A DNA stretch of 64,000 nucleotides, from assembly GCF_016903815.1 (NCBI RefSeq), contig NZ_CP069973.1; one strand, written 5' to 3'. A model generated the notes under the pieces. It was given only the letters and a program-made list of their open reading frames with translations, was not told where the DNA came from and did not search any database. Below, piece after piece: positions 938 through 46,669 of the stretch. A program made the position numbers and the translations under genes. Source of the DNA: Escherichia coli. GTDB taxonomy: Bacteria; Pseudomonadota; Gammaproteobacteria; Enterobacterales; Enterobacteriaceae. The number at the start of each line of letters is the position of its first letter. Positions within the stretch are counted from its first letter, which is position 1.

Positions 938-957
938 TACCCAATTTTTCTGAATCT

Positions 958-984
958 AAAAAGCGCCTGCGGGCGCTTTTTTTG
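958..984 (+). terminator. rho-independent terminator after serS
   Basis: GC hairpin GCGCCTGCGGGCGC followed by a T-run (TTTTTTTG). Confidence 0.7.
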
Positions 985-1175
985 TCTCCCTTTGATACCG
1001 AACAATAATTACTCCTCACTTACACGTAATACTACTTTCGAGTGAAAATCTACCTATCTCTTTGATTTTCAAATTATTCGATGTATACAAGCCTATATAG
1101 CGACCTGCTATAGAAATAATTACACAATACGGTTTGTTACTGGAATCAATCGTGAGCAAGCTTGAGTGAGCCATT

Positions 1176-26176: not shown

Positions 26177-26458
26177 ATGACAGCAGAAGAAAAAAGCGTC
26201 CTGTCGCTTTTCATGATTGGGGTGCTGATTGTTGTCGGCAAGGTGCTTGCCGGTGGTGAACCTATCACCCCGCGTCTGTTTATCGGGCGCATGTTGCTCG
26301 GTGGTTTTGTCTCGATGGTTGCCGGTGTTGTTCTGGTGCAGTTTCCTGACCTGTCACTGCCTGCGGTGTGCGGCATCGGCTCCATGCTGGGTATCGCCGG
26401 TTATCAGGTGATTGAGATTGCCATTCAGCGCCGTTTTAAGGGCAGGGGGAAACCGTAA
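26177..26458 (+). CDS. holin (P2 gpY-like)
   Basis: 93 aa with hydrophobic helices and charged C-terminus; first gene of the lysis cassette. Confidence 0.65.
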   Translation: MTAEEKSVLSLFMIGVLIVVGKVLAGGEPITPRLFIGRMLLGGFVSMVAGVVLVQFPDLSLPAVCGIGSMLGIAGYQVIEIAIQRRFKGRGKP

Positions 26459-26955
26459 TGCCGGTAATTAACACGCATCAGAATATCGCCGCCTTTCTCG
26501 ACATGCTGGCCGTGTCCGAAGGGACGGCGAATCATCCGCTGACGAAAAACCGGGGCTATGACGTGATAGTCACCGGACTGGACGGAAAGCCGGAAATTTT
26601 CACCGACTACAGTGACCACCCGTTCGCGCATGGCCGACCGGCGAAGGTGTTTAACCGTCGCGGTGAAAAATCCACGGCCTCCGGTCGCTATCAGCAGCTT
26701 TACCTGTTCTGGCCGCACTACCGCAAACAGCTTGCCCTGCCGGATTTCAGTCCGTTGTCACAGGACAGGCTCGCCATTCAGTTGATCCGCGAACGCGGTG
26801 CACTGGATGACATCCGGGCGGGACGCATTGAGCGCGCCATTTCACGCTGTCGCAATATCTGGGCGTCCCTGCCGGGTGCCGGTTACGGTCAGCGTGAGCA
26901 TTCACTGGAAAAACTGGTCACCGTCTGGCGTACCGCCGGCGGCGTACCGGCTTAA
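26458..26955 (+). CDS. endolysin (P2 gpK-like lysozyme/transglycosylase)
   Basis: 165 aa; catalytic-type motif DMLAVSEGT near the N-terminus. Confidence 0.7.
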   Translation: MPVINTHQNIAAFLDMLAVSEGTANHPLTKNRGYDVIVTGLDGKPEIFTDYSDHPFAHGRPAKVFNRRGEKSTASGRYQQLYLFWPHYRKQLALPDFSPLSQDRLAIQLIRERGALDDIRAGRIERAISRCRNIWASLPGAGYGQREHSLEKLVTVWRTAGGVPA

Positions 26956-26969
26956 ACGGAGTAAACACC

Positions 26970-27395
26970 ATGAAGAAATTATCCCTTTCACTGATGCTGA
27001 ACGTGTCGCTGGCGCTGATGCTGGCACTGTCCCTGATTTACCCGCAGAGCGTGGCCGTCAGTTTTGTCGCCACCTGGGCGATTCTGGCGACGGTTATCTG
27101 TGTGGTTGCCGGTGGTGTCGGCGTGTATGCCACGGAGTATGTGCTGGAACGCTACGGGCGGGAGCTGCCGCCGGAATCGCTGGCCGTGAAGATTGTCACG
27201 TCGCTGTTTTTGCAGCCGGTGCCGTGGCGCAGACGGGCGGCGGCTCTGGTGGTGATGGTGGCGACGTTTATCTCGCTGGTCGCTGCCGGGTGGATTTTTA
27301 CCGCGCTGATTTATCTTGTGGCGTCGCTGTTTTTCCGGCTGATACGTAAAGCCTGTCGTCAGCGTCTTGAGGGGCGGGAACTATGTCAAAGCTGA
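26970..27395 (+). CDS. LysA-like lysis-timing membrane protein
   Basis: 141 aa, several TM helices, position after endolysin. Confidence 0.55.
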   Translation: MKKLSLSLMLNVSLALMLALSLIYPQSVAVSFVATWAILATVICVVAGGVGVYATEYVLERYGRELPPESLAVKIVTSLFLQPVPWRRRAAALVVMVATFISLVAAGWIFTALIYLVASLFFRLIRKACRQRLEGRELCQS

Positions 27396-27808
27396 TGATT
27401 GTGCTGGTCGTGTTGTTATCGCTGGCGGTGGCCGGTCTGTTTCTGGTGAAACACAAAAATGCCAGCCTGCGCGCCTCGCTGGACAGGGCGAATAACGTCG
27501 CCAGTGAACAGCAGACGACCATCACCATGCTGAAAAATCAGCTTCATGTTGCCATCACCAGGGCAGACAAAAACGAGCTGGCGCAGGTGGCACTGCGTCA
27601 GGAACTGGAGAACGCCGCGAAGCGTGAAGCACAGCGCGAGAAAACCATCACGAGGTTACTCAATGAAAACGAAGATTTTCGCCGCTGGTACGGTGCTGAC
27701 CTGCCTGATGCTGTGCGCCGGTTGCACCAGCGCCCGGCCTGCGCAGACGCCAGTGATTGTCCACAACGCCTGCCCGAAAGTGAGTCTTTGCCCGATGCCG
27801 GGCAGTGA
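27383..27808 (+). CDS. LysB-like (Rz-like spanin, inner-membrane component)
   Basis: 141 aa, N-terminal TM helix then coiled-coil region. Confidence 0.55.
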   Translation: MSKLMIVLVVLLSLAVAGLFLVKHKNASLRASLDRANNVASEQQTTITMLKNQLHVAITRADKNELAQVALRQELENAAKREAQREKTITRLLNENEDFRRWYGADLPDAVRRLHQRPACADASDCPQRLPESESLPDAGQ

Positions 27809-27953
27809 CCCGCAGAAGAACGGCGATTTAAGTGCCGATATCCGGCTGCTTGAGAACGCGCTGGCACGCTGTGCCAGCCAGGTAAAAATGATTAAACACT
27901 GTCAGGACGAAAACGATGCTCAAACCCGACAGCCTGCGCAGGGCGCTGACTGA
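27663..27953 (+). CDS. LysC-like (Rz1-like outer-membrane lipoprotein spanin), begins inside lysB in another frame
   Basis: Lipoprotein signal with lipobox (MKTKIFAAGTVLTCLMLCAGCTS), Pro-rich; 96 aa like P2 LysC. Confidence 0.5.
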   Translation: MKTKIFAAGTVLTCLMLCAGCTSARPAQTPVIVHNACPKVSLCPMPGSDPQKNGDLSADIRLLENALARCASQVKMIKHCQDENDAQTRQPAQGAD

Positions 27954-28383
27954 TGCCGTCACGGTGCTGAAAACCAGTCCCGAGATGCTGCGGATATTCG
28001 TGGATAACGGGAGTATTGCCTCCACGCTGGCGACGTCGCTGTCATTCGAAAAGCGTTACACGCTCAATGTCATTGTGACCGACTTTACCGGTGATTTTGA
28101 CCTGCTCATCGTGCCGGTGCTGGCGTGGCTGCGGGAAAATCAGCCCGACATCATGACCACCGACGAAGGCCAGAAAAAGGGCTTCACGTTTTATGCGGAC
28201 ATCAACAATGACAGCAGCTTTGATATCAGCATCAGCCTGATGCTGACCGAGCGCACGCTGGTCAGTGAGGTGGACGGCGCACTGCATGTGAAGAATATCC
28301 CGGAACCTCCGCCGCCGGAGCCGGTCACTCGCCCGATGGAGCTTTATATCAATGGCGAACTGGTGAGCAAGTGGGATGAATGA
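27916..28383 (+). CDS. tail completion protein (P2 gpR-like)
   Basis: 155 aa, size and position as P2 R. Confidence 0.7.
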   Translation: MLKPDSLRRALTDAVTVLKTSPEMLRIFVDNGSIASTLATSLSFEKRYTLNVIVTDFTGDFDLLIVPVLAWLRENQPDIMTTDEGQKKGFTFYADINNDSSFDISISLMLTERTLVSEVDGALHVKNIPEPPPPEPVTRPMELYINGELVSKWDE

Positions 28384-28899: not shown

Positions 28900-29685
28900 T
28901 TATGAGTGATTTTTATTTGATGCTTTGTATTCTAAAACCTTCTTATTGGCGTAAAAGAATTTTGTATATGACAGGAATATAACCAGACCTGAAGTGAAAT
29001 AGACGAGGGATAGTATTAATAATGCTTTTTTGTGACTGTTATTGTCTTTAATCTCCTGGCTTAACCATTCGGAGTCCTCCTCGTTTAACTGTAAGAGCTT
29101 ATTGCAGGCGATCTCAGGAAGTGTGTCTTTTATAAATACGTTTTGCAGTCTCTTGCAATCGGCAAGGCTATAAGTTTTATTAAATTCAACTGCTTTATTT
29201 TTGAAGGATAAAAGAACTTTGTCACTATAAACATAGTACATCATGTTTTTATATGGTATGCCTATGGCATCCCTTACTATAACGGATTGTTCGTTGTGTA
29301 TGTAACATGCGAGGAGAATGTAAAAAATACTGGCCAGAATTACAATTATTGTTTTAATTACGTGTGGTGGTTTTGTTATGTCACCCCAGATGCGAGTAAG
29401 GAAAAAATACGATGTTTTTAGTTTTCCATCAATCAGTCCCTGCTGTATCATTCTCACATTTTCAATGCCTGATACATTGATTCCGTTAATTATTTTAAAT
29501 AGTTGAATGTCGCGCCACTCGCGGTCAAGTCTTTTTAATTTTTTGTCTGAATATCCAAAATTGAGATAATGTGCAATAAGCCTCATAAGGTTACTTTTAC
29601 CAAAGCTAAAAAATGCTAATACTGCAAAGCTACAAAGGAAAAAAACGATTAGCCCCCACACATTAGTCACATTATAGCTGACCAT
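28900..29685 (-). CDS. cargo membrane protein (three predicted TM helices), function unknown
   Basis: 261 aa, AT-rich, opposite orientation to flanking late genes, at the P2 orf30 variable position between S and V. Confidence 0.5.
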   Translation of the reverse strand: MVSYNVTNVWGLIVFFLCSFAVLAFFSFGKSNLMRLIAHYLNFGYSDKKLKRLDREWRDIQLFKIINGINVSGIENVRMIQQGLIDGKLKTSYFFLTRIWGDITKPPHVIKTIIVILASIFYILLACYIHNEQSVIVRDAIGIPYKNMMYYVYSDKVLLSFKNKAVEFNKTYSLADCKRLQNVFIKDTLPEIACNKLLQLNEEDSEWLSQEIKDNNSHKKALLILSLVYFTSGLVIFLSYTKFFYANKKVLEYKASNKNHS

Positions 29686-35038: not shown

Positions 35039-36265
35039 ATGTTACAGTTCAGCTTTGTATCAAATGACGTTGTTATGACTTACGACGGTGACAGCGGAGA
35101 ACAAATAATTTGGGTTTGGGAGAGTTTAAATAAATTTCAAACAGTATGCATTTCACGCATTTTTAACTTTCAACTCCAGGACTTGAGAAACCCACCGTCA
35201 ACCGTTCAGGATTTTAATGATTATGAATATTCCTTTAATTTTGGCACGCTTAATAATGAATACATAACAGTTCCGGGACGGATTCTAAGCATTAATCGAG
35301 ATGTCCTTATACATAAGTCCATCAAGCTTGAAAGGAAAGTATTTGCGTCAGAACGCAACGTCTCCATTTTTGGTCGGCTTTCAAAACTACTCGATCACAC
35401 TAATCCCATCATCATCGGAGGAGATAAGTCGGAAGCTATACCAAAAAGCGTATTCCAGGAGTTGCAAAGTAAATTCCCCAACACAGGGGAACTGGATCGC
35501 TATGCTAATGCAAGGGTTCACGCTATTCTCGCAGGTTATCTTGATGGTATGAAAGATGCTCGCGAACGGTATGAACATTACCTAAACAGAAAAACAGTGA
35601 TCAGAAAAACCGACAAACTGGATTTAGAAGTTTTAAATAAGCTCGAAATTGAGAAATATACACTCATAAGAGACATTATCCAGGATGCGTTGAATAACAA
35701 AACTAACTTGTCTGAAGATGACTGGCAGAGCCTGATGATACCCTTCATCACATTACTTTTTCCAAAATATATCAAGGTCCTCGAGAAGGTTAAAATTTTC
35801 GACTATTACTCTAATCCTTCGGCTAAAACAAATCGGTTTATAGACATTGCACTGGTGGATGCAAACGGCAACCTTGATATCATCGAAGTCAAAAAGCCGT
35901 TTGATGATAAGATCCTTCGCAAGACGCCCTATCGCGACAACTATATTCCTACATCAGAACTTAGCGGCGGTATTATGCAGGCTGAAAAGTATATTTTTCA
36001 TTTATCTAAATGGGGTGTTAAGGGTGAAAAAGAGCTTACGAATGCCTACAAGAATTCTCTGCCAGCGGGAATGTGTATTCGTATATCTAACCCAAAAGCC
36101 ATCATCATTGTCGGGCGCGATCAGATAGCGAACGGTAACATGACCGACGGTCAGTTGCTTGATTTTGAGATAATCAAACGTAAGTACGCCAACATGATAG
36201 ACATATTGACGTACGACGACCTGTTGCGTCGACTTAATAATACGATTGAAGCATTGAAAGGTTGA
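35039..36265 (+). CDS. cargo protein with C-terminal PD-(D/E)xK nuclease-like motif (possibly Shedu-like), function unknown
   Basis: 408 aa, AT-rich; motif RFIDIALVDANGNLDIIEVKKP (D...D...E-x-K) near residue 275-295; located at the P2 Z/fun variable position between G and FI. Confidence 0.5.
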   Translation: MLQFSFVSNDVVMTYDGDSGEQIIWVWESLNKFQTVCISRIFNFQLQDLRNPPSTVQDFNDYEYSFNFGTLNNEYITVPGRILSINRDVLIHKSIKLERKVFASERNVSIFGRLSKLLDHTNPIIIGGDKSEAIPKSVFQELQSKFPNTGELDRYANARVHAILAGYLDGMKDARERYEHYLNRKTVIRKTDKLDLEVLNKLEIEKYTLIRDIIQDALNNKTNLSEDDWQSLMIPFITLLFPKYIKVLEKVKIFDYYSNPSAKTNRFIDIALVDANGNLDIIEVKKPFDDKILRKTPYRDNYIPTSELSGGIMQAEKYIFHLSKWGVKGEKELTNAYKNSLPAGMCIRISNPKAIIIVGRDQIANGNMTDGQLLDFEIIKRKYANMIDILTYDDLLRRLNNTIEALKG

Positions 36266-45811: not shown

Positions 45812-46669
45812 TTAATGGTGATCGTTTTCACGCAGGTAAATGACCCAGTATGTCAACCCAACCAACAAACCACCGCCGATAATATTACCGATCGTAACCG
45901 GAATCAGGTTATCAGTGATGAAGTTCATCACGGTCAGGTGAGAAAAATTTTCCGGTGCAGAACCGACAGCGGTCCAGAATTCCGGAGATGCGAAGTCGCG
46001 GATTACAATACCCATCGGGATCATAAACATGTTTGCGATACTGTGCTCAAAACCGCTGGCAACAAACATCGCGACCGGCAGCACCATAATGAACGCTTTA
46101 TCCATCAGGCTGCGGCCAGAATAACTCATCCATACTGCCAGACATACCATCAGGTTTGCCAGGATACCAAGGCAGACGGCCTCAATAAAAGTATGGTGCA
46201 CTTTGTGGTCGGCGGTTTGTAGGACGTTTAGTCCCCATTGACCATTCGCGGTCATATACTCGCCGGAAAGCCACATTAAAAGTACAAACAGCAGTGCGCC
46301 GACCAGGTTGCCAAAATAGACATTTAGCCAGTTTTTCGCCAACTGACCCCAGGTGATTCGCCCACTCGCCTTAGCAACAACAATCAACACTGTGGAAGTA
46401 AAGAGATCGGCTCCGCAGACAACACAAAGAATCAGCCCCAGAGAGAAGCAAATGCCGCCAACCAGTTTTGCCATGCCGAAGGGCATTGTTCCTGTGCCAG
46501 TGGTTGCTGTGATATAGAAGACGAATGCGATTGAGATGAAAACACCGGCGGTAATCGCCAGATAGAAAGTCTTAAGCGGATGTTTCGTTGCTTTATAGAC
46601 ACCTGCCTCTTCGGCCACTTTGGCCATTGCTGCAGGAAGTAAAAGATCAAAAGGGTTGTCAGCTTTCAC
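45812..46669 (-). CDS. focA: formate channel (GTG start predicted)
   Basis: FNT-family membrane protein; start placed at GTG giving (M)KADNPFDLLLP..., 285 aa; the ORF-track extension to 47008 is AT-rich promoter region. Confidence 0.8.
   Translation of the reverse strand: MKADNPFDLLLPAAMAKVAEEAGVYKATKHPLKTFYLAITAGVFISIAFVFYITATTGTGTMPFGMAKLVGGICFSLGLILCVVCGADLFTSTVLIVVAKASGRITWGQLAKNWLNVYFGNLVGALLFVLLMWLSGEYMTANGQWGLNVLQTADHKVHHTFIEAVCLGILANLMVCLAVWMSYSGRSLMDKAFIMVLPVAMFVASGFEHSIANMFMIPMGIVIRDFASPEFWTAVGSAPENFSHLTVMNFITDNLIPVTIGNIIGGGLLVGLTYWVIYLRENDHH

Follow-up and report, generated by a model that had tools for sequence, protein, structure and literature searches.

The lysis proteins LysB and LysC of bacteriophage P2 are a paradigm of the two-component spanins that make up the overlapped class (PMC6139136, PMC3556154, PMC3091744). 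This class is defined by its gene arrangement: the start of the o-spanin gene lies within the i-spanin gene, in the +1 frame, and its end past the stop codon of the latter (PMC3556154). SpaninDB lists the P2 pair as 'ovl'. For LysC it records LCAG as the lipobox, a signal of 20 residues and a mature protein of 76 residues with four periplasmic cysteines; for LysB, an N-terminal segment of 22 residues and a periplasmic domain of 119 residues (PMC6139136). In curated records, P2 lysC (NC_001895 8202..8492; NP_757382) is 291 nt long, begins in lysB and stops in R.

We analysed a 64,000-nucleotide stretch of DNA (hereafter the window). It belongs to an Escherichia coli chromosome in which pflA and pflB flank a complete P2-like prophage that runs from integrase to ogr. 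The ORF at 27663..27953 is, with a probability of about 0.94, the lysC gene of this prophage, that is, an o-spanin gene with its own Shine-Dalgarno (SD) sequence and ATG, whose product would pair with LysB and act in lysis.

Location and architecture of lysC

The gene order of the region, Y-K-lysA-lysB/lysC-R-S, is that of P2. Its features are as follows.

26177..27395, + strand: lysis genes upstream of lysB in the same operon, identified by a holin profile and by the P2 and PGAP annotations
26177..26458, + strand: holin gene Y (PF04550 at 2.6e-42)
26458..26955, + strand: endolysin gene K (P2 and PGAP annotations)
26970..27395, + strand: lysA (P2 and PGAP annotations)
27383..27808, + strand: lysB, the i-spanin partner, with an N-terminal membrane anchor (residues about 4-22) and a periplasmic domain
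27652..27655, + strand: SD sequence GAGG, 7 nt 5' of the lysC ATG
27663..27953, + strand: lysC coding sequence, 96 aa plus stop (ORF, family models, identity to P2 LysC)
27663..27722, + strand: codons 1-20, lipoprotein signal peptide with MKTK n-region, hydrophobic core and LCAG lipobox (hydropathy, motif, AlphaFold2, conservation)
27723..27725, + strand: codon 21 (TGC), predicted lipid-modified cysteine and first mature residue, with Thr at +2 (conservation)
27663..27808, + strand: dual-coding stretch, encoding LysB residues 94-141 and LysC residues 1-48 (signal peptide and Pro-rich linker)
27809..27915, + strand: lysC-only stretch, with most of the conserved NGDLSADI motif and the C-terminal helix
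27825..27926, + strand: codons 55-88, predicted long alpha-helix of mature LysC (AlphaFold2 model)
27860..27878, + strand: perfect 8-bp hairpin inside lysC (P2 annotation, fold)
27916..27953, + strand: 3' end of lysC (38 nt) over the start of the tail-completion gene R (27916..28383)

The lysC ATG lies at 27663 and the TGA stop codon at 27951-27953, with 96 codons in between. The offset of 280 nt relative to the start of lysB (280 mod 3 = 1) places lysC in the +1 frame. The two genes share 146 nt, lysC then runs alone for 107 nt, and its last 38 nt overlap R, whose product matches PF06891 at 6e-45; lysC thus ends 145 nt downstream of the lysB stop codon. Starting within lysB in the +1 frame and ending beyond it, lysC has the architecture of the overlapped class. 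A preliminary description of this DNA had proposed a lipoprotein ORF that starts within lysB in another frame and extends into R, and both its coordinates and its wording proved exact.

The partner, LysB, scores 170 bits against TIGR03495 (cutoff 92.75), matches PHROG 89 and shares 96% identity with P2 LysB, and its hydrophobic N-terminus reads LMIVLVVLLSLAVAGLFLV. It has two periplasmic cysteines and LysC has four. The sequence hallmarks of an o-spanin are therefore all in place: a lipoprotein signal, no Asp at +2, an overlapping i-spanin gene, and a cassette with holin and endolysin.

Other genes of the prophage and its flank

Several further genes of the prophage are recorded here as observations in their own right. 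At the position of P2 old/tin, an HTH_VI gene (16418..16750, + strand) and an RT_VI gene (16689..17666, + strand) were recognized by PADLOC at 7e-30 and 1e-105, respectively. The pair is a type VI retron-like defence module, and an Rfam search with gathering thresholds gave no match there. Adjoining it in the same prophage hotspot is a gene on the opposite strand (17775..19139, - strand) for a 454-aa FRG-domain protein (PF08867), which PADLOC assigns to the candidate defence family PDC-S15 (9e-98). A gene for the Shedu nuclease SduA (35039..36265, + strand; PADLOC 1e-219; Pfam SduA_C) is inserted between a tail-fibre assembly gene and the sheath gene, at the P2 Z/fun position.

Between S and V, a homologue of P2 orf30 is encoded on the opposite strand (28900..29685, - strand; 261 aa). 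It belongs to PHROG 2407, and no match to it was found in Pfam, NCBIfam or PADLOC. Well away from the prophage, the flanking chromosome carries the enterobacterial sRNA STnc130 (951..1085, - strand; RF02084, 140 bits).

LysC is the orthologue of P2 LysC

Bacteriophage P2 and its relatives match the 2.8 kb of DNA around lysC at 97-98% identity. Over the gene itself, identity to P2 is 98% at the DNA level and 94% at the amino-acid level, and the correspondence extends to the 291-nt length, the position, the +1 frame, the overlaps of 146 and 38 nt, the signal peptide, the LCAG/C lipobox and the SD sequence. The two LysC proteins differ by six substitutions (R2K, P25R, P28Q, P34H, T52K and Q62L, P2 residue first). 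An unannotated equivalent protein of Yersinia phage L-413C is 100% identical to the LysC of the window.

Family models agree with this assignment. LysC scores 122.4 bits against NCBIfam NF038368 (P2_Rz1, 'Rz1-like lysis system protein LysC'; cutoff 27), covering 85/85 profile positions, and 54.6 bits against Pfam PF23793 (LysC; cutoff 27); it also matches PHROG 456, 'Rz-like spanin'. With scores above both HMM cutoffs, a gene flanked by lysB and R in a P2-type late operon, and the invariant residues described below, the protein belongs to the P2 LysC family. The P2 LysB/LysC arrangement proposed earlier therefore holds in the strict sense of orthology, by position, by length, by 94% protein identity and by LysC-specific models.

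Signal peptide, lipobox and predicted fold

The LysC N-terminus, MKTKIFAAGTVLTCLMLCAG/CTS, combines two lysines, a hydrophobic core and an LCAG motif followed by Cys21, as determined by hydropathy and motif scanning. The lipobox nevertheless fails all the strict patterns to which it was compared (PROSITE PS51257, DOLOP [LVI][ASTVI][GAS]C and a G+LPP-like pattern), because a Cys occupies position -3. The same was noted for the P2 protein in SpaninDB: 'LipoP finds cleavage site at 20 and 17... No hit by Prosite' (PMC6139136). We kept the lipoprotein call despite the pattern failure, since Cys21 is invariant, the signal peptide is conserved and the LipoP note is published. Of the lipobox announced in the preliminary description, the LCAG-Cys21 motif and the signal hallmarks were thus found, and agreement with the strict PROSITE and DOLOP patterns was not. 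Lipidation of LysC is accordingly a prediction that draws on LipoP-type analysis by others and on conservation.

We also built an AlphaFold2 model of the LysC monomer from a 44-sequence alignment. Its mean pLDDT is 77, with values of 90-96 over residues 41-80. The model has a helix at residues 5-20, corresponding to the signal peptide, no regular structure at residues 21-54 and a single long helix at residues 55-88. According to this layout, the overlap with lysB encodes the signal peptide and a tolerant linker, and the long helix and most of the NGDLSADI motif lie in DNA free of lysB. No solved structure for LysC or LysB was detectable by sequence.

Conservation among phages and in E. coli

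We compared the locus with those of ten relatives spanning 94% to about 35% protein identity: P2, L-413C, 186, SW9, Yersinia phage vB_YenM_31.17, Klebsiella phage 4LV2017, Salmonella phage SopEPhi, a Halomonas phage, Burkholderia phage KL3 and Pseudomonas phage phiCTX. All ten have a +1-frame lipoprotein ORF that begins at the same site in the lysB homologue and ends beyond it. Each encodes a basic n-region, a hydrophobic core and a lipobox cysteine, in the form LCAGC, LCVGC, TLSGC, LLAGC or MLCAC. In the other lineages examined, an SD-like element (GAGG, AAGG, GAGGA or GGAG) precedes the equivalent start. The absence of a conserved lipoprotein ORF from related phages had been named beforehand as the observation that would speak against the gene; instead, 10/10 relatives keep the ORF.

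In the alignment of 44 homologues, Cys21, C37, C43, N53, G54, L56, A66 and C70 are invariant and C80 is conserved in at least 90% of the sequences. The N-terminal signal pattern is conserved as well. The LysC of the window carries C21, C37, C43, N53, G54, L56, C70 and C80. The family is widespread: tblastn found lysC in 273 phage records, a protein search returned 170 clusters, nearly all with PF23793, and the lysB-lysC segment, annotated as LysB/LysC, occurs in 1603 of 5426 complete E. coli genomes.

A set of close relatives was assembled from 80 IMG/VR loci and the window (81 in total). An intact, collinear LysC of 96 aa is encoded in 79 of these 81 loci, and all 79 have the LCAGCT motif. 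In the two remaining IMG/VR loci, one lysC stops seven codons early (89 aa) and the stop codon of the other is read through. Natural variation also occurs in the linker, with R25 in 50/79 and H34 in 36/79 of the close loci. The two loci with an altered stop suggest that the extreme C-terminus of LysC, which overlaps R, is dispensable.

Selection in the lysC reading frame

An open frame inside another gene may arise by chance, and we therefore weighed the possibility that lysC is no gene at all but an accidental opening in lysB and R with a fortuitously hydrophobic N-terminus. The length of the ORF is uninformative in this respect, because the +1 frame over the overlap stays open in 4192 of 5000 synonymous shuffles of lysB (84%). 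Long open alternative frames are also found nearby, over 125 of 141 codons in the +2 frame of lysA and 96 of 150 in the +1 frame of S, and the failure of the lipobox to match strict patterns would equally suit an accidental frame.

The pattern of substitutions argues otherwise. Relative to phage 186, the changed codons of the lysC-only stretch comprise 11 synonymous and 10 non-synonymous ones when read in the lysC frame, as compared with 3 and 21 in the second frame and 2 and 22 in the third. Over the overlap, synonymous changes relative to phage 186 are present in both real frames (7 and 8) and absent from the third (0/23). Among 73 close relatives, the variable sites of the lysC-only stretch are distributed 5/6/12 over the three codon positions, i.e. 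they are biased to position 3. Purifying selection operates in the lysC frame.

This concentration of synonymous changes in the lysC frame of the non-overlapped part, together with an ORF that is intact in 79/81 loci, curated HMM scores far above their cutoffs, and the conservation of the start, the SD sequence, the signal peptide and Cys21 down to about 35% identity, leaves practically no probability for a chance frame. On these comparative data, that explanation is refuted in practice, and lysC is taken to be more than chance by virtue of homology and frame-specific conservation, not of ORF length.

In the overlap, 16 of the 30 variable sites among the 73 close relatives fall at third positions of lysB codons, equivalent to second positions in lysC. 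Of the two products, LysB is thus under the tighter constraint there, and the LysC linker takes up the changes. This gathering of changes at lysB third positions explains the P25R, P28Q and P34H differences from P2: all three proline losses come from third-position changes that are silent in lysB.

A hairpin inside lysC

The hairpin at 27860..27878, GCTGGCAC-GCT-GTGCCAGC, raises the question of whether the lysC sequence might be conserved mainly for an RNA or DNA signal, with the reading frame of secondary importance. Its 8-bp stem is perfect, its loop has 3 nt, and the P2 record labels it 'putative transcription attenuator; O operon'. However, no T-run follows it, the terminator scan does not call it, and the 86-nt context folds no better than shuffled sequences (z = -0.18). 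The hairpin is not conserved in 186 or SW9, phages that keep the protein, and substitutions follow the codon frame. We thus give the signal explanation next to no weight, and we rejected the hairpin as a terminator: the stem is real, but it is not terminator-like, not significant relative to shuffles and not conserved. The Rfam search of the lysC region returned no match.

Comparison with lambda Rz/Rz1

The preliminary description had also drawn a parallel with Rz/Rz1 of phage λ. The two systems belong to the same functional class, and in both the lysis cassette ends with a +1-frame lipoprotein gene within the gene of its inner-membrane partner. In contrast with the overlapped lysC of the window, the λ Rz1 gene (46186..46368) is embedded, with no part of it outside Rz (45966..46427). 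Rz1 has 60 aa and is far more proline-rich than LysC, and the Pfam families of the two systems differ (PF03245 and PF06085 for Rz and Rz1).

Sequence comparisons agree with this separation. BLASTP of LysC against λ Rz1 gave no alignment at E <= 100, and that of LysB against λ Rz gave E = 0.36, i.e. no detectable similarity. LysC has no match to PF06085 at E <= 0.01, a model against which λ Rz1 scores 72 bits. LysC hence neither belongs to the λ Rz1 family nor has the embedded architecture, and its likeness to the λ system is architectural and functional, not one of family. The analogy of architecture and function therefore stands, and it does not extend to an embedded gene or to detectable sequence similarity. 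At the functional level, a 2004 study by Markov and colleagues (J Bacteriol 186:4628), which PMC3091744 and PMC3556154 cite, reportedly found that lysB and lysC together complement λ Rz/Rz1 mutants; lysC is also said to have been defined there through gor suppressors on an rpoC397 host.

Among the closest described systems is the group of overlapped two-component spanins (Summer et al. 2007; Kongari et al. 2018, SpaninDB), of which P2 LysB/LysC is the type example. We found no difference from it: within a lysis cassette, the window likewise encodes a lipoprotein together with a type II protein of the inner membrane, and each of the two has periplasmic cysteines.

Proposed role in lysis

In E. 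coli, an Asp residue at +2 of a lipoprotein prevents its sorting to the outer membrane. Because LysC has Thr, not Asp, at this position, it would be sent to the outer membrane. By analogy with the general lipoprotein pathway, the 96-aa prolipoprotein would be exported by Sec, Cys21 would be lipid-modified, and cleavage by signal peptidase II would then release the mature LysC of 76 aa, which the Lol system would deliver to the outer membrane, on its inner leaflet. This 76-aa form comprises a proline-containing linker, four conserved periplasmic cysteines and the C-terminal helix. Together with LysB, anchored in the inner membrane by its N-terminal transmembrane segment, it would form a two-component spanin that crosses the periplasm and is probably stabilized by disulfides.

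The holin Y and the endolysin K would first remove the peptidoglycan, and the spanin would then disrupt the outer membrane, completing lysis. On the λ Rz/Rz1 model, this disruption would occur by fusion with the inner membrane. The steps of this scheme are drawn from the general lipoprotein pathway and from λ Rz/Rz1 work summarized in PMC6139136 and PMC3091744. Studies of the fusion step deal almost exclusively with λ Rz/Rz1, a pair with no detectable homology to LysB/LysC, and for the latter pair lipidation, sorting, complex formation and membrane fusion are all proposed by analogy.

In P2 records, the entries for lysA, lysB and lysC carry the label 'nonessential; affects timing of lysis / regulation of lysis', which would fit a LysC that mainly regulates lysis timing, for instance via holin/antiholin, rather than disrupting the outer membrane. 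Spanins appear non-essential under shaken laboratory conditions, which explains the old 'nonessential' label. A timing role would also be in line with the lysC missense alleles at the first two prolines that shift lysis timing, and with the speculation, in the same study, on a functional P2-like spanin-holin interaction (PMC3556154). However, LysC has all the sequence hallmarks of an o-spanin (a lipoprotein signal, outer-membrane sorting, a type II partner and periplasmic cysteines), LysB/LysC is classed in the field as a paradigm spanin, and the two roles can coexist. We therefore consider it very improbable that regulation of timing is the main function of LysC, and retain that of an o-spanin acting with LysB.

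Variation in the linker of this o-spanin might still tune lysis timing. The LysC of the window has R25, Q28 and H34 at P2 proline positions, and position 25 is among the 'first two prolines' hit by the laboratory-selected P2 lysC timing alleles (PMC3556154). If such tuning took place, the overlap could serve as a cheap evolutionary dial for timing, because these linker changes are silent in lysB. Our data on this idea cover only allele frequency and the lysB-wobble origin of the changes, and we regard it as unlikely.

Start site and database annotation of lysC

Database entries often give lysC a different start. In an E. coli prophage 99.7% identical to that of the window, the RefSeq/PGAP annotation of lysC has 81 aa (MLCAGC...) and starts at the equivalent of position 27708, and this 81-aa form is common to many NCBI entries. 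Its signal peptide is reduced to a remnant of the hydrophobic core and the lipobox, the n-region being lost, and such a product is predicted to be one that cannot be exported. We rejected ATG 27708 as the start, as it has no SD sequence, is replaced by CTG or ACG in relatives and entails the loss of the signal peptide. An upstream candidate, ATG 27546, which would yield a 135-aa ORF, was also rejected, since relatives have in-frame stops a few codons upstream of the conserved start; this is the case of 186, SW9, 4LV2017, SopEPhi and phiCTX.

In contrast to both candidates, the start at 27663 is conserved along with its SD sequence, and the curated P2 record and SpaninDB have the same start. 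The GAGG motif of the window is also that given for P2 LysC in SpaninDB (PMC6139136). The correct start of lysC is 27663, yielding a protein of 96 aa with a full lipoprotein signal.

In several GenBank or RefSeq phage records the gene is missing altogether: among those of L-413C, SopEPhi, vB_YenM_31.17, 4LV2017, phiCTX and the Halomonas phage are some that lack a lysC coding sequence though the ORF is intact. The Halomonas phage record has an over-extended version of lysC labelled 'outer membrane lipoprotein LolB'. Such N-terminal truncation or omission in database annotations is widespread for lysC, and Kongari et al. describe it as a general problem of embedded and overlapped o-spanins (PMC6139136).

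The lysC gene of the window is real, already known and ordinary. Its discovery value is small, P2 lysB/lysC being textbook overlapped spanin genes of which this is one copy among ~1600 in 5426 genomes. Its practical value lies in annotation: lipoprotein or spanin searches built on truncated or missing lysC entries will miss the gene.
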